Source of the DNA: Escherichia coli
GTDB taxonomy: Bacteria > Pseudomonadota > Gammaproteobacteria > Enterobacterales > Enterobacteriaceae
Assembly (NCBI RefSeq): GCF_003018235.1
Contig: NZ_CP027437.1
DNA length: 64,000 bases
Reading direction: 5' to 3' (one strand)
A model generated the notes under the pieces. It saw only the letters and a program-made list of their open reading frames with translations. It did not search any database and was not told the origin of the DNA. Every line of letters begins with the position of its first letter. Position 1 is the stretch's first letter. This document shows positions 3,534 through 50,651 of the stretch, piece by piece. Position numbers and translations under genes: made by a program.

Positions 3534-4613
3534 ATGCAGGCGATCCTGACGGTATTCCCGCAGCGTAATGCCGGGATAACACTGATGAAAACAGGTAATC
3601 TGACAGCGCGGTTCAGGGACGGGCAGAGAATAATGATAAGGGATGTTCCGTCTGTGATGGCTGGGATGCCATCAGGAGAAATTCCGTCATCAGGACAGAG
3701 GCTGGCGGAAGAGGAAGGACTGACGGCTTTCTTTGCTGACGGAAGGGTAATAAAGCGTGCTGGTGGCAGTGATGCCATGGCGCGTTGGGTGAGCAGGATT
3801 GCAGGCTGCCAGTGTGAGAATGGTGATCACGTGGAGAACATGACAACAGCGCGGACAATGCAGGGAGAGGCGCTTCGGTTATGCCATGCCTGTGATAATC
3901 ATCATTATATGAAAGGATATCGGGCGCTGGCAGATGTGGCAGCCAGAAATCGTGCAGAATGGCTGATGGATTATATCAGGATGAGTCTGGGGCTGGGGGA
4001 AGATCATCAGGTGACCATTCCTGAGTTGTTTTGCTGGGCAGTGCTGAATGATGTGGCAGATGCTGTTCCGGTTATGATCGTAAGGCGTATCAGACAATTG
4101 CCGGAAGAGGAAAAGCTGAGCGGCACGATGAAAGAAGCAGATATTAATCCCTGGCAGACATCAGCAGGCACAGTGGTGAAGAAACTGGCAGATAATGCGA
4201 AGAGCGTTAATGTGTGCAATGTGCGGGTCAGACATGCAGTACGCCAGGAAGAACACAAAGAAATGGAAAAACCGGTGCTGAAACTTGTTGCAGACAGTGA
4301 TCCGGCTGCGGGCTATATGAGGAAGCCCAGAATGCAGCGGCTGTCTCTGCCGGGTTATACCTCGTGGGTGAAGCGTCAGCGATGCTGTGGATGCGGGAAA
4401 CCTGCAGATGATCCGCATCACATCACCGGGCACGGTTTTGGTGGTGCAGGGATAAAAGCCAGTGATTTGTTTGTGATCCCGCTGTGTCGGCAATGTCATC
4501 AGGAATTACACAATGACAGCAAGGCATGGGAGGAGAAAAACGGCAGTCAGTTGCTGTGGGTGATAAGGACGCTGGACAGGGCAGCGGGCATTGGCGCTTT
4601 AGTTGGGGGGTAA
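3534..4613 (+). CDS. Cys/His-rich prophage protein, resembles YdfU/DUF968 family (from memory)
   Basis: ATG with AGAGGTGGGG RBS; C-terminal CCGCGKPADDPHHITGHGFGG...IPLCRQCHQELHN zinc-binding-like cluster and internal CQCENGDH...CHACDNHHY cluster; size about 359 aa. Confidence 0.4.
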   Translation: MQAILTVFPQRNAGITLMKTGNLTARFRDGQRIMIRDVPSVMAGMPSGEIPSSGQRLAEEEGLTAFFADGRVIKRAGGSDAMARWVSRIAGCQCENGDHVENMTTARTMQGEALRLCHACDNHHYMKGYRALADVAARNRAEWLMDYIRMSLGLGEDHQVTIPELFCWAVLNDVADAVPVMIVRRIRQLPEEEKLSGTMKEADINPWQTSAGTVVKKLADNAKSVNVCNVRVRHAVRQEEHKEMEKPVLKLVADSDPAAGYMRKPRMQRLSLPGYTSWVKRQRCCGCGKPADDPHHITGHGFGGAGIKASDLFVIPLCRQCHQELHNDSKAWEEKNGSQLLWVIRTLDRAAGIGALVGG

Positions 4614-4614
4614 C

Positions 4615-5319
4615 ATGACACCGCAACAGATGGTATGGGCGAGAGAGCAGGTTATTTTTGCACTGAATCCACCGGATAAACGTCAGAAGGGGCAACTGGA
4701 GGCATTTGGTGATTTTGCCAGGTCAGACACCAGGCGTTACGGGAGGCAGAGAAACAGGACACTGAACATTGATGGCCGGTGGTATTGTCAGGATGGTGAT
4801 CCGGTACATGCTGCGGCAACAGCCTGTTATGCAATACAACCGGATATGATCACCAGGGAAGCGTTCAGAACGGCACAACTGAGGAGGAGGATTTATTGTC
4901 TGGAGGATTATCATCGGGCCTGGGTGTTATTCAGTTACAGCTTGCAGAAAAAACGAATACACCATCTTCTGGTCAGTGAGTACATCTGGATGAGGATGTT
5001 CGAGCGGTTGCAGGGGAAACGGGTTACGGACAGGATGACAGGAAATCTGATTGAAATAGCGAGGATGGCTGCATGGAATGCTGCAGTGACAGCCGGTGGG
5101 ATTGTTGCAGGTAAGGTTCTGATTGCTCCTTCATGTGCGGCGCAGATTGCAGGTGTAAAACCAAACACATGGAGTCAGCATTACAAGGCTCACTGGTGTT
5201 TTATGCATGAAGTATGCGATGAACTGGATCATGAGGCGCTGGTGACCATTACAGGAATAAAAAATCACCAAAAAAACGGCGAAAAATATAAATTTGCTAA
5301 AGTGAATATTTTAAGGTAG
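4615..5319 (+). CDS. hypothetical protein, candidate Q-type late antiterminator (by position and size only)
   Basis: Start 1 nt after upstream stop; 234 aa; followed immediately by promoter-like hexamers and a strong intrinsic terminator, as for Q/PR-prime/tR-prime. Confidence 0.3.
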   Translation: MTPQQMVWAREQVIFALNPPDKRQKGQLEAFGDFARSDTRRYGRQRNRTLNIDGRWYCQDGDPVHAAATACYAIQPDMITREAFRTAQLRRRIYCLEDYHRAWVLFSYSLQKKRIHHLLVSEYIWMRMFERLQGKRVTDRMTGNLIEIARMAAWNAAVTAGGIVAGKVLIAPSCAAQIAGVKPNTWSQHYKAHWCFMHEVCDELDHEALVTITGIKNHQKNGEKYKFAKVNILR

Positions 5320-5322
5320 ATT
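5294..5322 (+). promoter_or_regulatory. candidate sigma70 promoter (possible PR-prime analogue): TTGCTA, 17-nt spacer, TAGATT
   Basis: Hexamers read directly at 5294-5299 and 5317-5322, at the 3-prime end of the candidate Q gene. Confidence 0.25.
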
Positions 5323-5363
5323 TGAGGCAAATTTGATAGTCTGCCGTATTTGTAAGCAGAGCA

Positions 5364-5390
5364 TAAACCCGCATATTGCGGGTTTTTTTA
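5364..5390 (+). terminator. intrinsic terminator (AACCCGCA-TATT-TGCGGGTT plus T7)
   Basis: Perfect GC-rich hairpin followed by TTTTTTT. Confidence 0.65.
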
Positions 5391-5513
5391 TGCCCGAAAT
5401 TTTCCCTCAGCGCAATAAATACGCTGGTGGTTGTGAGTACCGGTCTTTCAGCTTGCTGGCTTTTTCGACAAGAGTTATTGGTATGCCACGTTAACCGGAC
5501 AGGGGGAAAAGAC

Positions 5514-5711
5514 ATGCTGAAACAGCAGGATATGACAGAAACCGCCAGGGTGGTGTTTAATGAATTAAGCATTACCGAACCGGCGACCGTCGGGGAAATA
5601 GCGCAGAATACCTGCCTTTCACGTGAACGCTGCCAGTTAATACTGACTCAGCTTGTTATGGCGGGTCTGGCTGACTATCAGTTCGGTTGTTACAGACGCC
5701 TTCAGCAATGA
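5514..5711 (+). CDS. small winged-helix-like DNA-binding protein (65 aa)
   Basis: ATG with AGGGGGAAAAG RBS; helix-turn-helix-like segment VGEIAQNTCLSRERCQLILTQLVMAGL. Confidence 0.45.
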   Translation: MLKQQDMTETARVVFNELSITEPATVGEIAQNTCLSRERCQLILTQLVMAGLADYQFGCYRRLQQ

Positions 5712-5862
5712 AGGCATTCTTTTATTGTGAAGATGGGCGACTGGTTAGGTGTTACAGCACCCAACCAGTCATTCGCTCATGCTTGAAGGTCACAAGCGAA
5801 CCCAGGCCCACCGCTTTTGCACAAAAGCCCGGAGAGCCTACCGGAGATGAGTTTGTTGATCT

Positions 5863-6930
5863 ATGACGCATGTTGTAAAAATATCAGAAAGTGAACTGGT
5901 CAATGCTGACTGCCTGGAATTTATACACACGTTGCCAGATGACAGTATTGACCTGATCGTTACCGATCCACCGTACTTTAAAGTGAAACCCAATGGCTGG
6001 GATAACCAGTGGAAGGGTGATGAAGATTACCTGAAGTGGCTGGATCAGTGTCTTGCGCAGTTCTGGCGGGTGCTGAAACCTGCCGGAAGTCTTTACCTGT
6101 TCTGTGGCCATCGCCTGGCATCTGACATCGAAATCATGATGCGTGAACGCTTTAATGTGCTGAACCATATTATCTGGGCGAAGCCGTCCGGACGCTGGAA
6201 CGGATGCAACAAGGAAAGCCTGAGGGCGTATTTCCCGGCCACAGAGCGCATTCTGTTCGCGGAACACTATCTGGAGCCGTATCGCCCGAAAGATGATGGT
6301 TATGAGGCGAAGGGCAGGGCACTGAAACAGCATGTGATGGCACCGCTGATTTCTTACTTTCGTGATGCGCGTGCCGCCCTTGGGATAACGGCAAAACAGA
6401 TTGCTGATGTCACAGGAAAGAAAAACATGGTGTCGCACTGGTTCAGTGCCAGTCAGTGGCAGCTGCCGAACGAAAGCGATTATCTGAAATTACAGGCGCT
6501 GTTTGCCCGGGTGGCAGAAGAGAAGCATCAGCGCGGAGAACTGGAAAAGCCACACCACCAGCTGGTGGTAACGTATACCTCACTGAACCGGCAGTATGCG
6601 GAGTTGCTGAGTGAATACAAAAATCTGCGCCGGTATTTTGGCGTGACGGCGCGGGTCCCGTACACCGATGTGTGGACGCACAAGCCGGTCCAGTTTTACC
6701 CGGGTAAACACCCCTGTGAAAAACCGGCGGAGATGCTGCGGCAGATAATTTGTGCGAGCAGCCGTCCTGGTGACATGGTGGCGGATTTCTTTATGGGGTC
6801 GGGCTCAACCATAAAAGCCGCTATGGCGCTGGGGCGTCGTGCAATTGGTGTTGAACTGGAAGAGGAACGTTTTGCGCAGACCGTGAAAGAGATTAGTCAT
6901 ATCCTGACAGGCTCAATTGATGACGGATAA
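5863..6930 (+). CDS. orphan DNA amino-methyltransferase (N6-adenine/N4-cytosine, beta-class motif order)
   Basis: TDPPYF (motif IV) near N-terminus and FFMGSGST (motif I) near C-terminus; no adjacent restriction endonuclease. Confidence 0.8.
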   Translation: MTHVVKISESELVNADCLEFIHTLPDDSIDLIVTDPPYFKVKPNGWDNQWKGDEDYLKWLDQCLAQFWRVLKPAGSLYLFCGHRLASDIEIMMRERFNVLNHIIWAKPSGRWNGCNKESLRAYFPATERILFAEHYLEPYRPKDDGYEAKGRALKQHVMAPLISYFRDARAALGITAKQIADVTGKKNMVSHWFSASQWQLPNESDYLKLQALFARVAEEKHQRGELEKPHHQLVVTYTSLNRQYAELLSEYKNLRRYFGVTARVPYTDVWTHKPVQFYPGKHPCEKPAEMLRQIICASSRPGDMVADFFMGSGSTIKAAMALGRRAIGVELEEERFAQTVKEISHILTGSIDDG

Positions 6931-7380
6931 GGATGGATAAAGACATGGTCAGTTCAGGATGCGAAGCAAGTAAACAGATAAGGCTATAAAAAAAACTGAC
7001 AGTAGAAAAATAGCTTTTTCCCAGGTATTCATGAACACAATCTCTTAAAAGCGCCCGCTGATACCAGCGGGCAATACATACTGGCATTGATGTTAAGTTT
7101 ACAGGTTTCATTTATCGTATCGTGCGACACGACGTTGTTATGTTAATAAGTGTGATTTTTGATGTGAAATGTTTGTTGCGTGTTTTTTGATGGGTTTCTC
7201 ATTTTTCAGGCATCATCTCGTCACTGATGTGCAGCACAGCGATGAGGTGCTACTACTTCCACGGAGCGGATTTTGTCTTTTTTGTGGGTGGTAAAAATCT
7301 CCTTATAGCAGGATGTGATAATTATTTATCAGTATAATCTTATGAGATTGACGCGATTTCTCCGGATTTGTTAGAAGATC

Positions 7381-7420
7381 ATGCATGGTGAATCCACCTC
7401 AGCGGTGGGTCATAATGACC
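7381..7420 (+). repeat. about 40-bp conserved motif, copy 1 (GCATGGTGAATCC-hairpin-CATAATGAC)
   Basis: 33 of 40 identical to copy 2 at 7940-7979. Confidence 0.5.
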
Positions 7421-7456
7421 GCCTGTTCGCCGGTTCAATCCCTGCGGGGGCCACCA
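7404..7456 (+). pseudogene. degenerate tRNA: ileX/ileZ-like 3-prime half (CAT anticodon, T-arm, GGGGGCC-A-CCA) lacking a pairing 5-prime acceptor strand
   Basis: 3-prime half aligns closely to E. coli ileX recalled from memory; no 5-prime sequence can pair with the acceptor 3-prime strand. Confidence 0.4.
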
Positions 7457-7457
7457 T

Positions 7458-7534
7458 GCGCCGTTAGCTCAGCTGGACAGAGCAATTGCCTTCTAAGCAA
7501 TCGGTCACTGGTTCGAATCCAGTATGGCGCACCA
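7458..7534 (+). tRNA. tRNA-Arg (anticodon TCT, reads AGA)
   Basis: Cloverleaf folded by hand: 7-bp acceptor stem, perfect 5-bp anticodon stem ATTGC/GCAAT, loop CTTCTAA, T-loop TTCGAAT, encoded CCA. Confidence 0.85.
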
Positions 7535-7535
7535 T

Positions 7536-7610
7536 GCGGTCATCGTATAATGGCTATTACCTCGGCCTTCCAGGCTGATGATGCGGGTTCGATTCCAGCT
7601 GGCCGCTCCA
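7536..7610 (+). tRNA. tRNA-Gly (anticodon TCC), glyT-like with one T-stem mismatch
   Basis: 75 nt, near-identical to E. coli glyT recalled from memory; anticodon loop CTTCCAG; acceptor stem with one G-U; T-stem GCGGG/CCAGC has a G-A mismatch. Confidence 0.7.
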
Positions 7611-7630
7611 TAGAGGATTATGGGGACTGT

Positions 7631-7768
7631 ATGTTGAGTATTTTTCTGCGTTACCTTTCATCGGTAAAAATAAACACACAACAACTATTTATGCTGGCAT
7701 TAGCAATGATAGTTATTGGTTTTCTCGGAACTTGTTTATTTATTTACTATATTTTTGTCGATAATTAA
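7631..7768 (+). CDS. small hydrophobic peptide ORF (45 aa, MLSIFLRYLSSVKINTQQLFMLALAMIVIGFLGTCLFIYYIFVDN)
   Basis: ATG ORF in AT-rich spacer after tRNAs; one predicted TM helix; weak RBS. Confidence 0.25.
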   Translation: MLSIFLRYLSSVKINTQQLFMLALAMIVIGFLGTCLFIYYIFVDN

Positions 7769-7939
7769 TATTTTTAGTATTTAGCCAGAGTGGCCCAAAC
7801 AGAAAATAAAGTTACTGTGAAACAGGGGGGCCTAATAAAAATAATCACCACTAAATTCGGGGCTTTAAAAATGCTAAGAACATCACATTTCATTATGCCG
7901 GGTACTGGAGAATAACATGATGTTTTGTTAAAAATGATT

Positions 7940-7979
7940 TTGCATGGTGAATCCCCCTGTGCGGCGGGGCATAATGACA
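7940..7979 (+). repeat. about 40-bp conserved motif, copy 2
   Basis: See copy 1; a partial inverted copy (GGTCATTGCAG...CACCATGCAG) lies at about 8021-8064. Confidence 0.5.
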
Positions 7980-8321
7980 GATGTTTGGTTGCGTATTGTA
8001 TAGGCAAGTTGCGGATTCTGTCTGGTCATTGCAGAATTCACCGGGAGGCACCCGGCACCATGCAGATAATTGTTTTGTGGATGATAATACCAGCCCCTCT
8101 CCGGAGGGGCTTTCTTATGGGCGAAAAAAAGCCCGGGGAGCCGGGCAATAGCATGAGATATACGTTTTTATAGACGTACAGATTTTAATCAGAATTTATG
8201 GGGCTGCGCAACTGCGTGGCCTTTTTTGTTTTGTGGGCTAAGGTTTTCCCCTTTGATTCGCCATGTGGCTGAACCTGTAGCCCGCCACTGTTCAGACGCA
8301 ATCCCGGCAAGGGGAGGAATA

Positions 8322-10349
8322 ATGGCATTTAAACACTACGATCTGGTCTCTGCCAGCAGCGGTGATGAACTGCAAAAGAAACTGACAGAAAAAATAAATG
8401 AAGGGTGGCAGCCATACGGTTCGCCGCTTGTTTCGTATGACGATAACGGGATGAAAATTATTCAGGCCATTGCAGCAGAGGGTGATGTCAGGATCCCGGT
8501 TGAAACGCCTGATGATGGTGGTGATTCACCGGTCACAATGACCTCCGGTGCACCTGATTATTATTATGTTGTTGTGCTTGCCGGACAGTCCAACGGCATG
8601 GCCTACGGTGAGGGGCTTCCGTTACCGGACTCTTATGACCGCCCGGACCCGCGCATTAAACAGCTGGCACGCCGCAGTACAGTGACGCCGGGTGGGGACG
8701 CCTGTGCATACAATGATGTGATTCCGGCTGACCATTGTCTGCATGATGTACAGGATATGAGCGGTGTTAATCATCCGAAAGCGGACCTGAATAAGGGGCA
8801 GTATGGCTGTGTCAGTCAGGGGCTGCATATTGCCAAAAAACTGCTGTCGTATATCCCGCAGAATGCAGGGATACTTCTGGTGCCCTGCTGCCGTGGTGGT
8901 TCTGCATTCACCACCGGGGCTGACGGCACATTCAGTGAGGTCACCGGCGCATCCGCTGACGCTGCACGCTGGGGTGCCGGTAAACCCCTGTATCAGGACA
9001 TGGTCAGCCGGACAAAAGCGGCGCTGGCCAAGAACCCGAAAAACAGGCTGCTGGCGGTGGTATGGATGCAGGGCGAGGCAGACCTTGCGTCAGGCAGTCA
9101 GCAGCATAACGGGTTATTCACGGCCATGGTTCAGCAGTTCCGGACTGACCTGTCCTCACTTGCTGCGCAGTGCGTGAGTGGCAATGCTGCCACGGTGCCG
9201 TGGATTTGTGGTGATACCACGTATTACTGGAAGGCCACTTATGGCACACAGTATGAAGCCATTTATGGAGCCTATAAGAATCTGTCCGCACAGAATATTT
9301 TCTTTGTACCGTTCCTGACAGATGAAAACGGCGCAAACACGCCAACGAACCAGCCAGCGGAAGACCCGGATATTGTGGCTGTGGGGTATTACGGTGCGGC
9401 ATCACGAACACAGGCGAACTGGACGACAGCGCAACGTGACAGCCATTTCAGCACCTGGGCGCGTCGCGGCATCATTTCTGACCGCCTTGCGTCAGCTATT
9501 CTGGTGCACGCGGGACGTACGTCAGGTTTCATTACCGGTGAAGTTTCTTCTCCGGACACTGCATCCGGTGACGGTGGTTCGTCCACTGATGCGGGTACGG
9601 ATGCGGGGACCGGCACTTCCGGAACAGGAAGTGATGACGCTACCGGAACGACACCAGCCACCGCTGCCATTATTCTGAGTGCAGACGGAGGGGATGTTTC
9701 GGCACAGGGCTGGACGGTGGAAGGCACCACGGTGACCACCACGGCAAACACGGTGACTTCATCGGGTGAGGCGCTGGCGCAGAATGTGCTGAGTGTTCCG
9801 AAACAGAGCGGGGCAGCATGGAAGCTTGTTCATACCACCACAGATGAGCCAGCGGAACTGCTGAACAATGGCGGTGAGTTCCTGTGTCGTTTCCGTATCA
9901 CGGATACTGCCATTGCTGAGGGGCGTTATGCCTTTGGTCTTTACTGGCTTCCGGACGCACAGAAGATACCAGCCGGTGCGACATTCAATAAAACAGGAAG
10001 CGGGATGTCCCCGTCCATGCTCAACTTCTATGTCCAGACGGATGGCAGCAACATAAACCTGTTATCACACTGCAGTACGAAGAGTGCAGGGAATCTGAAG
10101 ATTGGCTCATTCGGTGCATTTAACAATGAATGGCATACCTTCCGTCTTCGCTACCATGGTGGCAATACGGCAAGAGCAACGGTGACGCTGGACAGTCAGG
10201 TGGTGGGAGATATAACGCTGTTATGTGCGCCGTCAGCGGCCAGTGCCGGTGACACTCTGTCGATGATAAGTATCACATCGGGTGATACATACAGTATTGA
10301 AGTGGAAAGCCTGAGTGTGACGGTGAACGGGGCTGCGGCAGCGGCGTGA
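8322..10349 (+). CDS. prophage sialate O-acetylesterase-like protein (NanS-p-like) with long C-terminal Thr/Gly-rich domain
   Basis: GGGGAGGAATA RBS then ATG; SASA-type catalytic motif VLAGQSNGMAYGEG; N-terminal region resembling DUF1737; position equivalent to the esterase gene downstream of stx in Stx phages. Confidence 0.6.
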   Translation: MAFKHYDLVSASSGDELQKKLTEKINEGWQPYGSPLVSYDDNGMKIIQAIAAEGDVRIPVETPDDGGDSPVTMTSGAPDYYYVVVLAGQSNGMAYGEGLPLPDSYDRPDPRIKQLARRSTVTPGGDACAYNDVIPADHCLHDVQDMSGVNHPKADLNKGQYGCVSQGLHIAKKLLSYIPQNAGILLVPCCRGGSAFTTGADGTFSEVTGASADAARWGAGKPLYQDMVSRTKAALAKNPKNRLLAVVWMQGEADLASGSQQHNGLFTAMVQQFRTDLSSLAAQCVSGNAATVPWICGDTTYYWKATYGTQYEAIYGAYKNLSAQNIFFVPFLTDENGANTPTNQPAEDPDIVAVGYYGAASRTQANWTTAQRDSHFSTWARRGIISDRLASAILVHAGRTSGFITGEVSSPDTASGDGGSSTDAGTDAGTGTSGTGSDDATGTTPATAAIILSADGGDVSAQGWTVEGTTVTTTANTVTSSGEALAQNVLSVPKQSGAAWKLVHTTTDEPAELLNNGGEFLCRFRITDTAIAEGRYAFGLYWLPDAQKIPAGATFNKTGSGMSPSMLNFYVQTDGSNINLLSHCSTKSAGNLKIGSFGAFNNEWHTFRLRYHGGNTARATVTLDSQVVGDITLLCAPSAASAGDTLSMISITSGDTYSIEVESLSVTVNGAAAAA

Positions 10350-10481
10350 GGATAAAAAAAGCTGCCGTGGAAAGTGTCCTGAACCGGCAGCAAGGTCAAA
10401 TGATGGATATACCAATAAGGTTTAATAGGCGCAGATATTTCTAACCGGAAGGCACTTAACGGTCAATAATGGAGGTTGGTA

Positions 10482-10667
10482 ATGACATTTATACAACTGA
10501 TACTGCTATATTTCTGCACGGTGGTCTGTGCGTTATATCTGGTGAGCGGTGGCTATAAAGCCATCAGAAATTATGTCCGCCGAAAAATTGATGATGCAGC
10601 GGCTGAGAAGCTCAGCAGAACAACACAGGCTGCCTCATCCCCGAACGAACCAACCCTTCCACAGTAA
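10482..10667 (+). CDS. small single-pass membrane protein (61 aa)
   Basis: GGAGG RBS 6 nt upstream of ATG; N-terminal hydrophobic helix. Confidence 0.45.
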   Translation: MTFIQLILLYFCTVVCALYLVSGGYKAIRNYVRRKIDDAAAEKLSRTTQAASSPNEPTLPQ

Positions 10668-10689
10668 CGTCTCTCAGCGGGAAAATACC

Positions 10690-11025
10690 ATGACAGAACT
10701 GAACAAACTGGTCACTGCAGATGCAGTGAAGGCCGCACTGCGCTCTGAAGAAGTGCGGGGAAAACTGAAGGAAACCATCCGCAAAACGTTTGAGGCACAG
10801 ATTGATGCGGATGTGGAAGCGGTGCTGGATGAGCTTATCGGGCCTGCGGAAGCTCAGCCGGGAGCACCGGCCGGAGAGGATGCGCAGGCGGATGACACGT
10901 CAGCGGAAAACGGTGCGGCACAACCGGAACCTGAATCAGGAACCGAAGCTCAACCGGACGCTGCTTCCGGAACAGGAACGCAACCGGAGGGTACCCCGGA
11001 GCCGGAACCGGCGACGTTGCTGTAA
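10690..11025 (+). CDS. acidic low-complexity protein (112 aa)
   Basis: ATG in frame of ORF 10549..11025; C-terminal E/P/A/G/T-rich tail. Confidence 0.4.
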
Positions 11026-11102
11026 CACCTCATACTCAGGCCACCAGCATACAGCGGTGGCCTTTTGTTATCGTGCGCTTCCGGAGAACGGGAGACGGGG
11101 AT

Positions 11103-11318
11103 ATGTACCAGATGGAAAAAATCACAACAGGGGTGTCATACACCACGTCAGCGGCGGGAACGGGATACTGGTTACTGCAGCTGCTGGACAGGGTCTCCCC
11201 GTCCCAGTGGGCGGCGATAGGCGTGCTGGGGAGTCTGCTGTTTGGTCTGCTGACGTACCTGACGAACCTGTATTTTAAAATCAGAGAGGACCGTCGTAAG
11301 GCGGCGCGGGGAGAATAA
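11103..11318 (+). CDS. holin, phage-21 S-type (pinholin-like) with dual-start motif MYQM
   Basis: Near-identity to S21 C-terminal region ([14 protein letters not shown]...[22 protein letters not shown], from memory); two TM segments. Confidence 0.8.
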
Positions 11319-11321
11319 ATA

Positions 11322-11953
11322 ATGAACCATGAAGAAATGAATCAGCGCTTCAGTCGCCTGGAAAATGAAATTGCCGGACTGAATAAAAAACTGTCGGCGC
11401 TGGTGACTTCTGAAGATGAAAAAAAAAACGCCGCGATGAACAGGAGGCGGCGTTTTATGATTATTGCATCAAAGTTGCCCGCAGGACCTTTGCGAATTTT
11501 TTGCAGGAAAAGCTATCACCGACCACATCGTCAGAAAAGTACTCCATTACGGTTGAAAGTGCCGGAGAGGAAGGCAATAAACGTTATTTTATTGCGTCTG
11601 CACCGGATAAAGACGAGGAACCCCGTCGGCCTTTCAGGGTTTCCTATGAAGAGGGGGAGTTCGTCGTTTATGAGAACGGAAAACCTGTCCGGGCATCGCA
11701 TCATCACTGCCTGAAAATTATTGATCTCGCTATTGGATGCCTGAAAGACGAAAACACCAGGGTTATGAAACGCATTGGCCGTTGCATGGGGTATCTGCAG
11801 GTGGCGGCAGAGATTGAAGCACTTGACAGTGGTGCTGACAGGGATACAGCGGTGCGGGAGTTCCTTCTTCGTGATTTCAATACCACGCCCTTTAAAAAAG
11901 TGCCTTATGACTGGATCCAGCCGGGCCTGACTTATCTCAAAGGGCGTATATGA
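11322..11953 (+). CDS. hypothetical gene between holin and endolysin, split into two frames at an A10 tract (11419-11428); fused product about 210 aa if -1 shift
   Basis: Frame 0 ORF 11322.. is protein-like for about 33 codons then junk-like; frame -1 is protein-like from the A-run to 11953 but has no ATG start; A10 tract followed by 7-bp-stem hairpin ACGCCGC...GCGGCGT. Confidence 0.35.
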
Positions 11954-11995: not shown

Positions 11996-12529
11996 ATGAA
12001 CGCAAAAATCAGATACGGCCTGTCGGCTGCCGTTCTGGCGCTGATTGCCGCAGGGGCTTCTGCGCCAGAAATCCTTGACCAGTTTCTGAATGAAAAAGAA
12101 GGTAATCACACCACGGCATACCGTGATGGTGCGGGTATCTGGACCATCTGCCGTGGTGCCATTCTGGTGGACGGTAAGCCTGTTGTTCCCGGCATGAAGT
12201 TGTCGAGGGAAAAATGCGACCAGGTTAACGCCATCGAACGTGACAGGGCGCTGGCATGGGTGGAGAAAAACATCAAAGTGCCGCTGACCGAACCGCAGAA
12301 AGCGGGGATTGCGTCATTCTGCCCGTACAACATCGGTCCTTCGAAATGCTTCACCTCAACGTTTTACCGGAGACTGAACGCCGGAGACCGTAAGGGGGCA
12401 TGTGCTGAAATCCGTCGGTGGATATATGACGGTGGCAGGGACTGCCGTATCCGCTCAAACAACTGCTACGGTCAGGTATCCCGGCGTGACCAGGAGAGTG
12501 CGCTGGCGTGCTGGGGTATCGACAGATAA
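11996..12529 (+). CDS. SAR endolysin (lysozyme, phage-21 R-type)
   Basis: N-terminal signal-anchor-release helix LSAAVLALIAAGASA followed by lysozyme catalytic region EGNHTTAYRDGAGIWTICRG. Confidence 0.8.
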   Translation: MNAKIRYGLSAAVLALIAAGASAPEILDQFLNEKEGNHTTAYRDGAGIWTICRGAILVDGKPVVPGMKLSREKCDQVNAIERDRALAWVEKNIKVPLTEPQKAGIASFCPYNIGPSKCFTSTFYRRLNAGDRKGACAEIRRWIYDGGRDCRIRSNNCYGQVSRRDQESALACWGIDR

Positions 12530-12864: not shown

Positions 12865-13332
12865 ATGAACCGTGTTCTGTATGTGTTGATTATTGTCCTG
12901 CTGGTGGCCTGCGGTGCGCTGTGGCTGGCAACAGACCATTACCGCGATAATGCCATCACTTACAAAGCGCAGCGCGATAAAAAAGTCAGAGAACTGAAGC
13001 TGGCTGACGCCACCATTACTGACATGCAGCAGCGCCAGCGTGATGTTGCTGCACTCGATGCAAAATACACAAAGGAGTTAGCCGATGCGAGAGCTGAAAA
13101 TGAAACTCTGCGCGCTGATGTTGCTGCTGGTCGTAAGCGCCTGCGTGTCAACGCCACCTGTGTGTCCGCCACAGACAAAGCCACCGGCACCGCCCGCGTG
13201 GGTAATGCTGCCCGCCCCAGACTGGCAGACGCCGCTCAACGGTATTATTTCACCCTCAGAGAGCGGCTGATGACGATGCAGAAGCAACTGGAAGGGGCAC
13301 AGGAATATATCAGGACGCAATGCGTGAAATAG
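12865..13332 (+). CDS. i-spanin Rz
   Basis: N-terminal TM helix then coiled-coil periplasmic domain; embedded Rz1 frame. Confidence 0.7.
13100..13270 (+). CDS. o-spanin Rz1 (lipoprotein embedded in Rz in +1 frame)
   Basis: Lipobox LLVVSAC and Pro-rich mature region, fully inside Rz. Confidence 0.65.
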
Positions 13333-23460: not shown

Positions 23461-26058
23461 ATGGCGGGTAACTTTGCAGATCTGACAGCAATTCTGACCC
23501 TGGATTCCACCCGCTTTTCTGAAGAAATGGGGCGGGTGAAAAAAGAGCTTGGCGAAACCAGCTCACTGGCAGACACGATGTCAGGCAAGGTCAGCCAGTC
23601 CCTGAATAAATCCGCAGAGGCCATTGAGCAGAGTCTGAGCCGTCAGGCGCTGGCCGCACAGAAAGCGGGGATTTCCGTCGGGCAGTATAAAGCCGCCATG
23701 CGTATGCTGCCTGCACAGTTCACGGATGTCGCCACGCAGCTTGCAGGCGGGCAAAGTCCGTGGCTGATCATGCTGCAACAGGGGGGCCAGGTGAAGGACT
23801 CCTTTGGCGGGATAATCCCTATGTTCAGGAGCCTTGCCGGTGCTGTCACCCTGCCGATGGCCGGGCTCACCTCGCTGGCGGTGGCGACAGGTGCGCTGGT
23901 GTATGCCTGGTACAAGGGTGATACCGTCCTGTCTGAATTTAATAAAACGCTGGTTCTTTCCGGTAATCAGTCGGGACTGACGGCAGATCGTATGTTGTCC
24001 CTGACCAGAGCCGGGCAGGCGGCAGGGCTGACGTTTAACCAGACCAGTGAGGCACTGACGGCGCTGGTGAATGCCGGTGTGCGTGGTGGTGAGCAGTTTG
24101 AAGCCATCAGCCAGAGTGTGGCACGTTTCTCCGCCGCATCGGGTGTGGAGGTGGACAAGGTTGCTGAAGCCTTCGGGAAGCTGACCACCGACCCGACGTC
24201 GGGGCTGACGGCGATGGCGCACCAGTTCCATAACGTGACGGCGGAGCAGATTGCGTATGTTGCTCAGTTGCAGCGTTCCGGCGATGAAGCCGGGGCATTG
24301 CAGGCGGCGAACGAGGCCGCAACGAAAGGGTTTGATGACCAGACCCGCCGCCTGAAAGAAAACATGGGGACACTGGAGACCTGGGCAGACAGGACAGCAC
24401 GGGCATTCAAATCCATGTGGGATGCGGTGCTGGATATTGGTCGTCCTGATACCGCGCAGGAGATGCTGATTAAGGCAGAGGCCGCGTTTAAGAAAGCGGA
24501 CGATATCTGGAATCTGCGCAAGGATGATTATTTTGTTAACGATGAAGCGCGGGCGCGTTACTGGGATGATCGTGAAAAGGCCCGTCTTGCGCTTGAAGCC
24601 GCCAGAAAGAAGGCAGAACAGCAGAGTCAACAGGACAAAAATGCGCAGCAGCAGAGCGATACCGAAGCGTCACGGCTGAAATATACCGAAGAGGCGCAGA
24701 AGGCTTACGAACGGCTGCAGACGCCGCTGGAAAAATACACCGCCCGTCAGGAGGAGCTGAATAAAGCCCTGAAGGCCGGGAAAATCCTGCAGGCGGACTA
24801 CAACACGCTGATGGCGGCGGCGAAAAAGGACTATGAGTCGACGCTGAAAAAGCCGAAACAGTCAGGCGTGAAAGTGTCAGCAGGCGATCGTCAGGAGGAC
24901 AACACCCGTACAGCGCTGCTGGCGCTGCAGACTGAGCTGCGGACACTTCAGGCCCACGCCGGGGCGAATGAAAAAATCAGCCAGCAGCGTCGGGAACTGT
25001 GGAAGGCGGAAAGTCAGTATGCGGTACTGGCGGAGGCGGCACAACGTCGCCAGTTATCCGCACAGGAGAAATCCCTGCTGGCGCATAAAGACGAGACGCT
25101 GGAGTACAGACGCCAGCTGGCTGACCTGGGCGACAAGGTTGAATACCAGAAACGGCTGAACGAGCTGGCAGACCAGGCGGAGAAATTTGCACAGCAGCAG
25201 CGGGCAAAACAGGCTGCCATCAGTGCAAAAGGCAGGGGGCTGACTGACAGGCAGGCGCAGCGGGAGTCAGAAGAGCAGCGGTTGCGCGAGGTGTATGGTG
25301 ATAATCCGCAGGCGCTGGTGAAGGCAACAGGTGCGCTGAAACAGACATGGGCTTCGGAAGACCAGCTGAATGGCAGCTGGATGGCCGGGCTTCAGTCGGG
25401 CTGGAGCCAGTGGGCTGAGAGTGCGATGGACAGTTTTTCGCAGGTGAAAAGTGTGTCCATGCAGACCTTTGACGGGATTGCGCAGAATATGGCAGCAATG
25501 CTGACCGGCAGTGAACAGAACTGGCGCAGCTTCACCCGTTCGGTGTTGTCGATGCTGACAGAAATTCTGCTGAAGCAGGCCATGGCCGGAATGGTCGGAA
25601 GTGCGATCAGTGCCATTGGCAGCGCTTTCGGCGGTGGTGCGTCGGCTTCAGCCGGTACGGCCATTCAGGCTGCGGCGGCGAACTTCCATTTTGCGACCGG
25701 AGGATTTACGGGCACGGGTGGCAAATATGAGCCTGCGGGGATTGTTCACCGCGGGGAGTTTGTCTTCACGAAGGAGGCAACCAGCCGGATTGGTGTCGGT
25801 AACCTGTACCGCCTGATGCGGGGCTATGCGGAAGGTGGTTATGTGGGCGGTGCCGGAAGTCCGGCGCAGATGCGGCGGGCGGAAGGTATCCGGTTTGAGC
25901 AGAACAACAGCGTGGTGATTCAGAACGACGGTACCAACGGGCAGGCGGGACCGCAACTGATGAAGGCGGTGTATGACATGGCCCGCAAAGGGGCGCAGGA
26001 TGAGATTCAGGCGCAGATGCGTGATGGCGGCGTATTTTCCGGAGGAGGTGGACGATGA
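23461..26058 (+). CDS. tail tape measure protein (lambda gpH-like)
   Basis: Near-colinear match to lambda H recalled from memory; AGGAGG RBS. Confidence 0.9.
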   Translation: MAGNFADLTAILTLDSTRFSEEMGRVKKELGETSSLADTMSGKVSQSLNKSAEAIEQSLSRQALAAQKAGISVGQYKAAMRMLPAQFTDVATQLAGGQSPWLIMLQQGGQVKDSFGGIIPMFRSLAGAVTLPMAGLTSLAVATGALVYAWYKGDTVLSEFNKTLVLSGNQSGLTADRMLSLTRAGQAAGLTFNQTSEALTALVNAGVRGGEQFEAISQSVARFSAASGVEVDKVAEAFGKLTTDPTSGLTAMAHQFHNVTAEQIAYVAQLQRSGDEAGALQAANEAATKGFDDQTRRLKENMGTLETWADRTARAFKSMWDAVLDIGRPDTAQEMLIKAEAAFKKADDIWNLRKDDYFVNDEARARYWDDREKARLALEAARKKAEQQSQQDKNAQQQSDTEASRLKYTEEAQKAYERLQTPLEKYTARQEELNKALKAGKILQADYNTLMAAAKKDYESTLKKPKQSGVKVSAGDRQEDNTRTALLALQTELRTLQAHAGANEKISQQRRELWKAESQYAVLAEAAQRRQLSAQEKSLLAHKDETLEYRRQLADLGDKVEYQKRLNELADQAEKFAQQQRAKQAAISAKGRGLTDRQAQRESEEQRLREVYGDNPQALVKATGALKQTWASEDQLNGSWMAGLQSGWSQWAESAMDSFSQVKSVSMQTFDGIAQNMAAMLTGSEQNWRSFTRSVLSMLTEILLKQAMAGMVGSAISAIGSAFGGGASASAGTAIQAAAANFHFATGGFTGTGGKYEPAGIVHRGEFVFTKEATSRIGVGNLYRLMRGYAEGGYVGGAGSPAQMRRAEGIRFEQNNSVVIQNDGTNGQAGPQLMKAVYDMARKGAQDEIQAQMRDGGVFSGGGGR

Positions 26059-44203: not shown

Positions 44204-47097
<2,894 letters not shown>

Positions 47098-47189
47098 ACA
47101 ACGCCGAAGCTGTTTTGGCGGATGAGAGAAGATTTTCAGCCTGATACAGATTAAATCAGAACGCAGAAGCGGTCTGATGAAACAGAATT

Positions 47190-47309
47190 TGCCTGGCGGC
47201 CTTAGCGCGGTGGTCCCACCTGACCCCATGCCGAACTCAGAAGTGAAACGCCGTAGCGCCGATGGTAGTGTGGGGTCTCCCCATGCGAGAGTAGGGAACT
47301 GCCAGGCAT
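47190..47309 (+). rRNA. rrfG: 5S ribosomal RNA
   Basis: 120 nt TGCCTGGCGGC...GCCAGGCAT. Confidence 0.97.
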
Positions 47310-47323
47310 CAAATTAAGCAGAA

Positions 47324-47350
47324 GGCCATCCTGACGGATGGCTTTTTTGC
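47324..47350 (+). terminator. rRNA operon terminator
   Basis: GGCCATC-CTGACG-GATGGCC hairpin plus TTTTT. Confidence 0.75.
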
Positions 47351-47631
47351 ATTGGCGCAGAAAAAATGCCGGATGCGACGCTGGCGCGTCTTATACTCCC
47401 ACATAAGCTAGATTCAGCAGCGAATACGGCTTCCCAAACTTGCCCACCTCCATACGTGTCCTCCTTACCAGAAATTTATCCTTAAGCTCCTCAATAACCA
47501 TTTTCCTGCTAACTAAATTCATGGTTAAGGTTGCATAATGATGCGCAACAAATGTATAACATTTTCTTTACCAAAAAAATAAACAACAGCGACCGACAAA
47601 AGCATCGGATTACGGCAGGAGATATAATGGC

Positions 47632-48930
47632 ATGGCTGAAAGTACTGTAACGGCAGACAGCAAACTGACAAGTAGTGATACTCGTCGCCGCATTTGGGCA
47701 ATTGTGGGGGCCTCTTCAGGTAATCTGGTCGAGTGGTTCGATTTCTATGTCTACTCGTTCTGTTCACTCTACTTCGCCCACATCTTCTTCCCTTCCGGGA
47801 ACACGACGACTCAACTACTGCAAACAGCAGGTGTTTTTGCTGCGGGATTTCTGATGCGCCCGATAGGCGGTTGGCTATTTGGCCGCATAGCCGATAAACA
47901 TGGTCGCAAAAAATCGATGCTGTTATCGGTGTGTATGATGTGTTTCGGCTCACTGGTTATCGCCTGTTTGCCAGGCTACGAAACAATCGGTACCTGGGCT
48001 CCGGCATTATTGCTTCTTGCTCGTTTATTCCAGGGATTATCCGTTGGCGGAGAATATGGCACCAGCGCCACCTATATGAGTGAAGTTGCCGTTGAAGGGC
48101 GCAAAGGTTTTTACGCATCATTTCAGTATGTGACGTTGATCGGCGGGCAATTGCTAGCTCTACTGGTTGTCGTGGTTTTACAACACACCATGGAAGACGC
48201 TGCACTCAGAGAGTGGGGATGGCGTATTCCTTTCGCGTTAGGAGCTGTGTTAGCTGTTGTGGCGTTGTGGTTACGTCGTCAGTTAGATGAAACTTCACAA
48301 CAAGAAACACGCGCTTTAAAAGAAGCTGGATCTCTGAAAGGATTATGGCGCAATCGCCGTGCATTCATCATGGTTCTCGGTTTTACCGCTGCGGGCTCCC
48401 TTTGTTTCTATACCTTCACCACTTATATGCAGAAGTATCTGGTAAATACTGCGGGAATGCATGCCAACGTGGCGAGTGGCATTATGACTGCCGCATTGTT
48501 TGTATTCATGCTTATTCAACCACTTATTGGCGCGCTGTCGGATAAGATTGGTCGTCGTACCTCAATGTTATGTTTCGGTTCGCTGGCAACCATTTTTACC
48601 GTTCCTATTCTCTCAGCATTGCAGAACGTTTCTTCGCCTTATGCCGCTTTTGGTCTGGTGATGTGCGCCCTGCTGATAGTGAGTTTTTATACTTCAATCA
48701 GTGGAATACTGAAGGCTGAGATGTTCCCGGCACAGGTTCGCGCATTAGGCGTTGGTCTGTCATATGCGGTCGCCAATGCTATATTTGGTGGCTCAGCAGA
48801 GTATGTAGCGTTGTCGCTGAAATCAATAGGAATGGAAACAGCCTTCTTCTGGTATGTGACCTTGATGGCCGTGGTGGCGTTTCTGGTTTCTTTGATGCTA
48901 CATCGCAAAGGGAAGGGGATGCGCCTTTAA
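47632..48930 (+). CDS. kgtP: alpha-ketoglutarate permease (MFS)
   Basis: 432 aa matching E. coli KgtP ([39 protein letters not shown]...). Confidence 0.95.
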
Positions 48931-49271
48931 TTATGCGCCAACTGCCAGACGGTATAGCCAGTAGTTGCACCGGCGACATCCCAGGTAAAATCTTTCCAGC
49001 TCCAGCCGCTCCCCTCGGGGCGGCTATCCCAAAGTTCTTTTGACGCGCCCAGCCCAACAGAGAACATCAGCCCGAAAGTGGCACTGCGATCTCGACTCAT
49101 CCCCTGATGCTGTGCATATTCATTTCCGGCGGCGGAAAGCATCGCCGAGGCGATAAAGTGTTGAGCTTTATCCTGCCCGCTCCAGCTATCGTTAGCCATA
49201 TGGCTGCATCCAGAAAGTAACAATAGCGAACAGACAAAAAGAATACGCAAAACGTGGCCTCCAAAAAACAA
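48927..49271 (-). CDS. yfiM: lipoprotein YfiM
   Basis: Lipobox LLLSGCS; synteny; start codon uncertain (TTG in ORF track). Confidence 0.8.
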
Positions 49272-49295
49272 ACCCCGTACAGGACGGGGTTGTGA

Positions 49296-50651
49296 TTACA
49301 GGATGCGGCTAATTAATCGGTCGATGCGGATACGGCGCAAACGACGGATGAGTTTACGAACCTTCACCGGATAATCGGCAATACTTTGCAGATCGCGATA
49401 GTGCTTAACGATGGTGGTATGCTCGCGGATCAGCTCCAGTTCTTTCTCTCGCTGTGGCGCAAGCTCCAGTTGCGGATCGTGGATCAAAATGGCGTTTTCC
49501 AGATCCAGACGCCAGGCGCGCGGGTTCAGGTTATTACCAGTGATCAACATCCACTTATCATCAACCCACATCCCTTTCAGGTGATAGGTGTTGTCGTCAT
49601 CTTTCCATAACCGAACCACTAACTGGTCAGTGTTGACGTAATACTGTAAACGGCTCAGGAAACGACGCAGATTGATCTCATAGAGATAAGGCAATGCGCC
49701 AATTATCTTGAAAGGTTCATCTTCCGGAATGTAGAAGTCATTCGCGGTTTTATCACCAACAATAATTTCGACCTTTTTCCCTTCGCGCAGCAACTGGATG
49801 ATATTGCGCACAAGGATTGCTGGCAGGTTGAAGTATGGCGTACAGATGGTTAGTTTCTGCTCGGCACAAGGCATAAGGTGGAAAATGGTCTTGTTTAACA
49901 GACTCGATTTCCCCAGTCCCACTAGCGGCGTTACGGAAAGCTGATCGTTGTCGGCATCGCCCTGGAAATGATAAGCGGCATCACGCAGCTCCTGGCGGAA
50001 CAGACGAATATCGTTCTTGATTTCCGGGCTTTTTGGCCGATTAACATCATCCAGACGATTAACGCCGCGGCCATTCATAATATTCTGTGTAACCCATTCA
50101 AACATAATGTCTGACATCTTACGGTTACGGATCAGATGATAACGGTCGTAGCGATATTTATCGTGCTGATGCAGGTAAACATCGTTCAGGCTGGCACCGC
50201 TATAAAGTACGCTATCGTCGATGATAAAGCCTTTAAAGTGCAGAACACCAAGGGCTTCACGGGTATTGATTGGAACGCCATAAACCGGAACATCTACGCC
50301 CGGATTTTCCTGCGCCATGCGGCAGTACCAGTCAGCGTTAGTGTTAGATGCCGCAGCGCCAATGCGTCCACGTTGTGCACGATGCCAGTCGACCAGCACC
50401 CGCACATCCAGTTCCGGACGCTGCCTTTTAGCCTCATACAACGCGTTCAGAATGCCTTTGCCACCGTCATCCTGTTCGAGATACAGGGCGACAATGCAAA
50501 TGCGCTGCTTCGCGCTGGCTATTTTTTCCAGCAGCGTCTCCCGGAAGTCGGCGGGAGCGTAAAAGAAATCGACATCATCAACTGATTGAGAAATCTTGGG
50601 TAGTTGGGCAAGGTGTTGTTGATGTTTATTACGCTTAAATTTTGACAACAT
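49296..50651 (-). CDS. pssA: CDP-diacylglycerol-serine O-phosphatidyltransferase
   Basis: 451 aa matching E. coli PssA (MLSKFKRNKHQQHLAQLPKISQSVDDVDFFYAPADF...). Confidence 0.95.
   Translation of the reverse strand: MLSKFKRNKHQQHLAQLPKISQSVDDVDFFYAPADFRETLLEKIASAKQRICIVALYLEQDDGGKGILNALYEAKRQRPELDVRVLVDWHRAQRGRIGAAASNTNADWYCRMAQENPGVDVPVYGVPINTREALGVLHFKGFIIDDSVLYSGASLNDVYLHQHDKYRYDRYHLIRNRKMSDIMFEWVTQNIMNGRGVNRLDDVNRPKSPEIKNDIRLFRQELRDAAYHFQGDADNDQLSVTPLVGLGKSSLLNKTIFHLMPCAEQKLTICTPYFNLPAILVRNIIQLLREGKKVEIIVGDKTANDFYIPEDEPFKIIGALPYLYEINLRRFLSRLQYYVNTDQLVVRLWKDDDNTYHLKGMWVDDKWMLITGNNLNPRAWRLDLENAILIHDPQLELAPQREKELELIREHTTIVKHYRDLQSIADYPVKVRKLIRRLRRIRIDRLISRIL

Follow-up and report, generated by a model that had tools for sequence, protein, structure and literature searches.

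The DNA analysed here is a 64,000-nucleotide (nt) stretch of Escherichia coli (contig NZ_CP027437.1, the window), which contains the late region of a lambdoid prophage from Q through Rz/Rz1. Directly upstream of the holin gene of this prophage lie two short genes of the families DUF1378 and DUF826. The window adds one more allele to a pair that is catalogued but uncharacterised, and what is new is cross-phage evidence tying DUF1378, at least once together with DUF826, to lysis genes. The explanation tentatively preferred, with a probability a little short of even, is that the pair forms a non-essential accessory module of the lysis cassette acting at the inner membrane. A sequence-only reading of the window had placed the two genes just upstream of the holin, and a P21-type S gene does follow them:

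10471..10475, + strand: GGAGG Shine-Dalgarno of the DUF1378 gene, read from sequence, 6 bases 5' of the ATG
10482..10667, + strand: DUF1378 gene (open reading frame 1, ORF1), 61 amino acids (aa); PF07125, phrog_494
10690..11025, + strand: DUF826 gene (ORF2), 111 aa; PF05696, phrog_311
11103..11318, + strand: P21-type (class II) pinholin S; PF04971, E 1.9e-33

The evidence for a place among lysis genes comes from DUF1378 outside E. coli. The family is small, with 38 clusters at 50% identity in a hidden Markov model search that covered 1.84 billion representative proteins, and the named organisms in these clusters are all Enterobacterales (Klebsiella/Raoultella, Pantoea, Mangrovibacter, Erwinia and Lonsdalea); a scan of one genome per species gave only 2 DUF1378 loci. 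Neighbourhoods were read for 14 non-E. coli lineages, and in 13 of them DUF1378 adjoins, or stands no more than two genes from, an endolysin or spanin gene. The gene orders, under the locus numbers used in this analysis, are as follows:

L004, phage BUCT709: S21-type holin, signal-arrest-release (SAR)-type lysozyme, Rz/Rz1, DUF1378, with an ATGA overlap
L088, Lonsdalea prophage: lambda-S holin, lysozyme, Rz/Rz1, DUF1378, with an overlap
L090/L091: Q, holin, lysozyme, DUF7940, spanin, DUF1378, DUF826, terminase
L092: Rz, DUF1378
L093: muramidase, DUF7940, Rz, DUF1378
L094: lysozyme, spanin, LysC, DUF1378
L096: lysozyme-like C-terminal fragment (assigned from sequence, with no Pfam match), DUF1378, spanin
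L097: S21-type holin, lysozyme, DUF1378
L098: lysozyme, DUF1378
L099: holin, lysozyme, spanin, DUF1378
L103: muramidase, 92-aa protein, Rz, DUF1378
L104/L105, Pantoea: Q, S21-type holin, lysozyme, Rz, DUF1378
L106, phage EKP1: holin, lysozyme, Rz, one ORF, DUF1378 (two genes after Rz)

Rz, Rz1 or LysC stands directly upstream of DUF1378 in L004, L088, L090, L092, L093, L094, L099, L103 and L104/L105, and in seven loci (L004, L088, L090, L094, L103, L104 and L105) the ATG of DUF1378 overlaps the stop codon of the lysis gene before it, Rz or LysC. The DUF1378 gene of L096 has the endolysin on one side and the spanin gene on the other. Both the overlaps and the L096 position argue for membership of the lysis operon. 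The cassettes themselves are of varied make-up: their holins belong to PF04971, to PF05106 or to no recognised family, their endolysins to PF00959 or PF11860, and their spanins to PF03245 or to PF10828 with PF23793, and downstream of them stand several terminase types. DUF1378 stays while every other cassette component differs, which makes inherited synteny alone a weak explanation. By guilt by association, this gene context suggests that DUF1378 is a lysis-cassette gene; in the window, too, with the order DUF1378, DUF826, S, a split ORF and the endolysin gene R, it is at most five genes from the endolysin.

The link extends at least once to DUF826. In L090/L091, the DUF826 assignment was confirmed by Pfam (2.6e-15) and by hhalign (97%, 40% identity), and no relatives of the L090 protein turned up when they were looked for. 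This true DUF826 stands beside DUF1378 in a lineage that lacks nanS-p, the gene that precedes the two in E. coli-type phages; the pair therefore predates its link to nanS-p. In three further loci (L097, 4184-4414; L098, 567-794; L104, 5179-5346), DUF1378 is followed by an ORF for a small, acidic and soluble protein. These ORFs are not detectably DUF826, and they may represent a recurrent analogous partner of DUF1378.

In E. coli-type phages, the pair belongs to a larger block, of which two further elements are needed here:

8322..10346, + strand: nanS-p, sialate O-acetylesterase with DUF1737, SASA and DUF6645 (Pfam)
11038..11069, + strand: intrinsic-terminator-like hairpin GGCCACC...GGTGGCC, then TTTTGTT (RNA fold), directly after DUF826

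GenBank phage records number 309 for DUF1378 and 307 for DUF826, almost all of them from Shiga toxin (Stx) or Stx-like phages, and the pair stands between nanS-p and the S holin gene in about 300 such phages. Of 5426 complete E. coli genomes, only 4 contain the window pair at a coverage of 80% or more, with DNA identities of about 92-96%. The nearest of these genomes have the same two genes between an esterase, labelled as SASA family (the counterpart of the window nanS-p), and a class II holin, and one of them is an Stx2j strain with stx upstream of the pair. Among IMG/VR loci of the E. coli type, 80 were compared: 53 lambdoid loci, like the window, have the pair immediately upstream of an S21-type holin, followed by a SAR endolysin and Rz, and the other 27 are right ends of Mu-like prophages, where the trio of nanS-p, DUF1378 and DUF826 is found after gin and beside a DNA methyltransferase. 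In every lambdoid locus, a GC-rich hairpin with a T-run separates DUF826 from S, and a hairpin follows DUF826 in the Mu-like loci as well. The stem sequence differs by lineage, and it is thus the structure that is conserved and not the sequence; the changes in the stem of the first hairpin (11038-11069) show a compensatory-looking pattern. This hairpin closes the nanS-p/DUF1378/DUF826 block. It was missed by a consensus scan, since its loop exceeds 8 bases.

The regularity of this block is the basis of the chief alternative, namely that the two genes have nothing to do with lysis and are cargo (a moron), carried in a mobile cassette of nanS-p, DUF1378, DUF826 and terminator whose small membrane protein would act on a target in the host inner membrane. 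Its role could be superinfection exclusion by blocking DNA entry, or another function in lysogen or late-stage fitness, and the proximity of lysis genes would then only reflect a permissive insertion site. This alternative is considered unlikely, if far from negligible. The order nanS-p, DUF1378, DUF826 is invariant in all 80 loci where the flanks are present, and the spacings are constant (nanS-p to DUF1378 about 135-150 nt, DUF1378 to DUF826 22-40 nt, and DUF826 to S about 75-77 nt), which speaks for this alternative. So do the sites at the right ends of Mu-like prophages, remote from lysis genes, and the solitary DUF1378 of Erwinia tracheiphila. Its block is closed before S by a structurally conserved terminator, a hallmark of morons, and the conserved transmembrane face of DUF1378 suits a conserved host partner better than it suits diverse holins. 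Against cargo stand the seven start/stop overlaps with Rz or LysC, the L096 arrangement, and the fact that 13 of the 14 non-E. coli lineages keep DUF1378 near lysis genes though the other components have been exchanged. A scan for a sigma-70 consensus between nanS-p and DUF1378 (10350-10480), which is blind to weak or activator-dependent promoters and to a promoter upstream of nanS-p, found none, and PADLOC defence models matched neither DUF1378, DUF826 nor NanS-p. The sequence-only reading had offered lysis-timing accessories or further cargo; the first of these has gained a lysis link for DUF1378 from gene context, and the second also keeps support, through the linkage to nanS-p.

A role in lysis has several observations against it. 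In E. coli-type phages, the pair is linked to nanS-p and not to S, and the 27 Mu-like loci have no lysis genes near the trio, which lies far from any. Prophages of Erwinia tracheiphila, the sole exception among the 14 lineages, have DUF1378 alone after a tail-fibre assembly gene, a comparable site. In the lambdoid loci, the terminator-like hairpin sets the pair apart from S. Stx1 phages of the YYZ-2008 type have nanS-p, S and R, and the 450 nt that they have in place of the pair contain nothing conserved. Whether a phage has the pair shows no relation to the dual-start motif of its holin. The site just after Rz is also known to host unrelated morons, for example lambda bor. Neither DUF1378 nor DUF826 matched the Pfam holin, antiholin or releasin families at E <= 0.1. 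Contact between DUF1378 and DUF826, and of either with S or R, is purely inferred. Finally, the literature on DUF1378 and DUF826 yielded only passing mentions (e.g., PMC10462455) in place of functional studies.

A further possibility is that the pair serves NanS-p, by localising this signal-peptide-less esterase, holding it at the membrane or releasing it. Strict adjacency of the three genes and their joint transfer between lambdoid and Mu-like phages are in keeping with such a service. All 14 non-E. coli lineages, however, have DUF1378 without nanS-p, one of them also with DUF826, and nanS-p in turn occurs in more GenBank phage records than the pair (351 vs 309/307), the YYZ-2008 type being an example of nanS-p without it. 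The gene and the pair are therefore separable in both directions, which contradicts a helper function and leaves it improbable. From the phages with nanS-p, S and R and without the pair it also follows that the pair is dispensable both for lysis and for NanS-p, and in a lysis cassette a dispensable pair would be a modulator and not a core lysis gene.

The DUF1378 protein has the features expected of a small membrane protein. ORF1 starts with the ATG at 10482 and ends with the stop codon at 10665-10667. Its product matches PF07125 with 124.6 bits (cut-off 25; E 1.7e-36) over residues 1-58, corresponding to positions 1-58 of the 59 in the model, and also phrog_494, both labels being of unknown function. 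The description of a 61-aa single-pass membrane protein with a strong ribosome-binding site, given by the sequence-only reading, is borne out by the GGAGG and by the strongly hydrophobic residues 3-21 (mean Kyte-Doolittle value 2.43). Two uncharged residues precede the hydrophobic helix and 5 K/R fall within the 17 residues after it; the topology is predicted, by the positive-inside rule only, to be N-out/C-in with a negligible periplasmic part. AlphaFold2 models one continuous helix over residues 3-51 and a disordered end. The layout comprises a transmembrane helix (about 3-22), a basic amphipathic helix predicted to be cytoplasmic (about 25-45) and an end that is variable and rich in Pro. 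Against E. coli database proteins, the window protein shows 95% identity, against the Stx2-phage copy 58%, and every invariant column of the family core LYF...V..LYLVSGGYK.IR.Y is present in it. The invariant residues (L9, Y10, F11, V15, L18, Y19, L20, G23, G24 and Y25) and the nearly invariant ones (K26, I28, R29 and Y31) are known by position, the invariant ones being located within the membrane helix or at its cytoplasmic edge. Such intramembrane conservation suggests that the helix has a specific helix-helix partner and is not a mere anchor.

The DUF826 protein is of a different kind, without a hydrophobic segment. ORF2 runs from the ATG at 10690 to the stop codon at 11023-11025. An acidic protein of 112 aa had been described here, and its acidic Pro/Glu/Ala-rich tail stands, with a net charge of -13; the length needs correction to 111 aa, since the 112 codons include the stop. 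The match to PF05696 scores 68.7 bits (cut-off 25; E 5e-19) over residues 1-69, and phrog_311, of unknown function, is matched as well. Residues 1-51 form a conserved helical domain, in which AlphaFold2 places helices 10-17 and 20-50 at a predicted local distance difference test (pLDDT) value above 90, and residues 52-111 form the disordered tail, mostly below 55. Residues 53-111 contain 13 D/E, no K/R, 9 P and 13 A, and the net charge of the whole protein is about -16. The tip of the tail is hydrophobic (TLL in the window; usually TLL, TML, MMM or TMM among alleles). Protein alignment shows that the alleles vary by insertions and deletions of 10 aa, with lengths including 91, 101 and 111 aa. 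The likely source of this stepwise variation is a repeat in the gene:

10921..10988, + strand: 30-nt tandem repeat, 2.3 copies, in the DUF826 tail (Tandem Repeats Finder)

The window protein is 97% identical to database proteins, and its tail is among the longest, with 111 aa in all vs 79-101 aa for most alleles. Compared with the Pfam families, the window DUF1378 is one more allele with nothing essential different, and the window DUF826 keeps the 51-residue domain and the place directly after DUF1378, with a longer tail. Both proteins, which the sequence-only reading had not recognised, are thus catalogued, as DUF1378/phrog_494 and DUF826/phrog_311. NCBIfam gave no meaningful match for the pair, and PDB profile searches with both families gave nothing significant (best E 0.044 and 0.37).

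If the pair is an accessory module of the lysis cassette, it could act as follows. In the window, both genes would be transcribed within the Q-dependent late operon. DUF1378 would insert in the inner membrane N-out/C-in, with its basic helix on the cytoplasmic face, and the polar and aromatic face of its transmembrane helix (Y10, Y19, S22, G23-G24 and Y25) would contact another membrane protein, the simplest candidates being the holin and the membrane-tethered SAR endolysin. DUF826 would be cytoplasmic, and its acidic helix would probably dock on the basic helix of DUF1378. Such docking would bring a net charge of -16 to the cytoplasmic face, by the basic C-terminus of the holin and the basic N-terminus of the SAR endolysin. 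The module might in this way tune pinholin firing or SAR endolysin release, and thereby determine when lysis occurs and how large the burst is, as well as the release of toxin by Stx phages.

Two small lysis proteins provide the models for this proposal. The Mu releasin gp25 (DUF2730, PF10805) is a protein of 99 aa, predicted N-out/C-in, with 4 periplasmic residues and an anionic cytoplasmic domain of 73 aa; it is needed for release of the SAR endolysin, and this dependence is conferred by lysines in the short cytoplasmic N-terminus of the endolysin (PMC9239132). DUF1378 likewise has an N-terminal transmembrane helix, a predicted N-out/C-in orientation and almost no periplasmic part. Each is encoded at most a few genes away from an endolysin gene and is found alongside SAR as well as soluble endolysins. 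In contrast to gp25, DUF1378 is not DUF2730 by sequence (no match to PF10805 at E <= 0.1), has 61 instead of 99 aa, and has a basic cytoplasmic helix, so that the anionic part would be the separate DUF826 product. Moreover, Mu has no holin whereas this prophage has a pinholin, and gp25 is required for Mu lysis whereas the pair is dispensable in nature.

The second model is Lcc6 (SO_4795) of the Shewanella phage LambdaSo, whose 65 aa include a transmembrane helix at residues 5-22 and about 43 residues of cytoplasmic tail; it is required for lysis, at the pinholin step, in a lambdoid phage that has a pinholin, a SAR endolysin and Rz/Rz1 (bioRxiv 10.1101/2024.01.23.576932). DUF1378 fits this description: it has 61 aa, a transmembrane helix at about 3-22 and a tail of 39 aa, and its phage, too, combines a pinholin with a SAR-type endolysin. 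Lcc6 differs in that its gene is near xis, a long way from the lysis genes, and in being essential for lysis. DUF1378 is proposed to work like gp25 and Lcc6, and family membership (DUF2730, holins) is not claimed; DUF1378 and DUF826 together would amount to the gp25/Lcc6 architecture in two pieces. For DUF826, a parallel may be drawn with the cytoplasmic antiholin RIII of T4, said to have been described by Chen and Young in 2016 as a small helical protein and reportedly proposed to act from the cytoplasm on a membrane protein involved in lysis. Both would be small and helical, the cytoplasmic site and the role of DUF826 being proposed only; RIII is said to differ in having no acidic disordered tail and in working with the periplasmic RI. 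A broader formulation, regarded as possible rather than probable, is that DUF1378, usually with an acidic partner (DUF826 or an analogue), constitutes an unrecognised fifth component of lysis cassettes in Enterobacterales phages, a two-piece counterpart of gp25/Lcc6 that would time the firing of the holin or the release of the endolysin.

It is phage-mediated lysis that lets Shiga toxin out of the cell, and in most Stx phages the pair lies between the toxin/nanS-p cargo and the holin. If the pair modulates the holin or the endolysin, then the timing and amount of toxin release, as well as burst size, would be affected. Mu gp25 and LambdaSo Lcc6 would also be joined by a third case of a small protein with an N-terminal anchor that works beside the classical set of holin, endolysin and spanin. 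If it is cargo instead, it would be one more small membrane moron of lambdoid prophages.

The description of the pair as two genes had to be weighed against a single-gene model, in which the in-frame long ORF 10549..11025 (158 aa) is the gene and the 61-aa ORF is spurious. The DUF826 frame is indeed open for 48 codons upstream in the window, older records give a long form (L0106 of 933W, 148 aa; orf43 of VT2-Sakai, 139 aa), and phrog_8301 models the long ORF. The open stretch upstream of DUF826 is, however, 5 to 67 codons long depending on the locus, with extensions that do not align, and such variable, non-aligning extensions indicate that the two-gene model is right. In Mu-like loci, a strong AAGGAGG stands right before the conserved DUF826 ATG, and the current NCBI pipeline annotates two genes. 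The 61-aa frame is, of the two genes, the one under stronger purifying selection, and it occurs alone in other phages. The median pairwise ratio of non-synonymous to synonymous substitution (dN/dS), over at least 80 loci with saturated synonymous divergence, is 0.12 for DUF1378 and 0.26 for the N-terminal domain of DUF826, and the window and L009 copies of DUF1378 differ at 18 synonymous sites and 1 non-synonymous site. Both ORFs are therefore under purifying selection, which marks them as genuine genes, and the single-gene model is effectively refuted. Conservation of the frames in related prophages was also checked, and both frames are kept in at least 80 related loci. In 933W (L107, AF125520 25261-25753) and VT2-Sakai (L002), one long ORF is annotated and the DUF1378 gene is missed; this long ORF consists of the DUF826 frame plus a spurious extension at its N-terminus. 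The DUF1378 copy of 933W is the unannotated ORF 25261-25437 of AF125520.

The remaining features of the late region are the following:

4603..5319: Q antiterminator
5863..6930: methyltransferase-like ORF
7458-7534: tRNA-Arg(tct)
7536-7610: tRNA-Gly(tcc)
11070..11102, + strand: second hairpin, overlapping the holin Shine-Dalgarno (GGGAGACGGGG) (RNA fold), conserved in all lambdoid loci
11322-11953: ORF split over two frames, 11322..11714 and 11501..11953, between pinholin and endolysin
11996..12529, + strand: SAR-type endolysin R; PF00959, E 3e-25
12865..13332, + strand: Rz i-spanin (ORF list; tblastn matches to Rz in related loci)
13085..13270, + strand: Rz1 o-spanin embedded in Rz, lipobox LVVSAC (ORF list)

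The window's late region contains no stx gene. It resembles that of Stx phages, but the interval from Q to nanS-p (4603-8300) has the methyltransferase-like ORF and the two tRNAs instead of stx, and stx2j occupies the equivalent place in the closest complete genome. For the host flank at 47000-50000 (kgtP, pssA, yfiM and rRNA), identity is 95-99% with nearly all complete E. coli genomes and reaches 99% or more with one only, and the flank probably belongs to a somewhat divergent Escherichia lineage.

The pinholin gene has possible dual starts at 11103 (MYQM...) and 11112 (MEKI...), judged by sequence and by the N-terminal variants across loci, and the second hairpin presumably resembles the sdi structure that sets dual-start translation of lambda S. 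The idea that the pair compensates for a missing antiholin start of S was rejected, because the holin N-termini (MYQM, IHQM and MKSM) are not associated with the presence of the pair. The endolysin R has the N-terminus MNAKIRYGLSAAVLALIAAGASA (MNAKIRYG...), basic and then weakly hydrophobic, and it is 86-93% identical to R proteins of Stx phages and Qin; on these two grounds it is assigned, as a prediction, to the SAR type. In the lysis regions of Qin and DLP12 of K-12, tblastn found neither DUF1378 nor DUF826, and membership of YdfR or YbcW in these families is not supported by that search. Both halves of the split ORF match phrog_1085, of unknown function, and a run of ten A lies near 11415-11424. 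The counterpart in E. coli CFIAFB20140388 is flagged as frameshifted, and the ORF could be a pseudogene or a slippage site.

Two records among the non-E. coli cassettes are labelled with unexpected hosts. 'Stenotrophomonas phage BUCT709' (L004, OM816835) and 'Elizabethkingia phage EKP1' (L106, OM284015) have lysis cassettes of the enterobacterial type, and the BUCT709 endolysin is 74% identical to that of the window; the stated hosts may be questionable. Elsewhere, DUF7940 (PF25612) is encoded between the endolysin and spanin genes (L090, 4271-4477; L093, 3186-3449), and the same slot in L103 (4185-4463) holds the 92-aa protein, which has two hydrophobic segments and no Pfam match. These DUF7940 and 92-aa proteins may be the holins of their cassettes.

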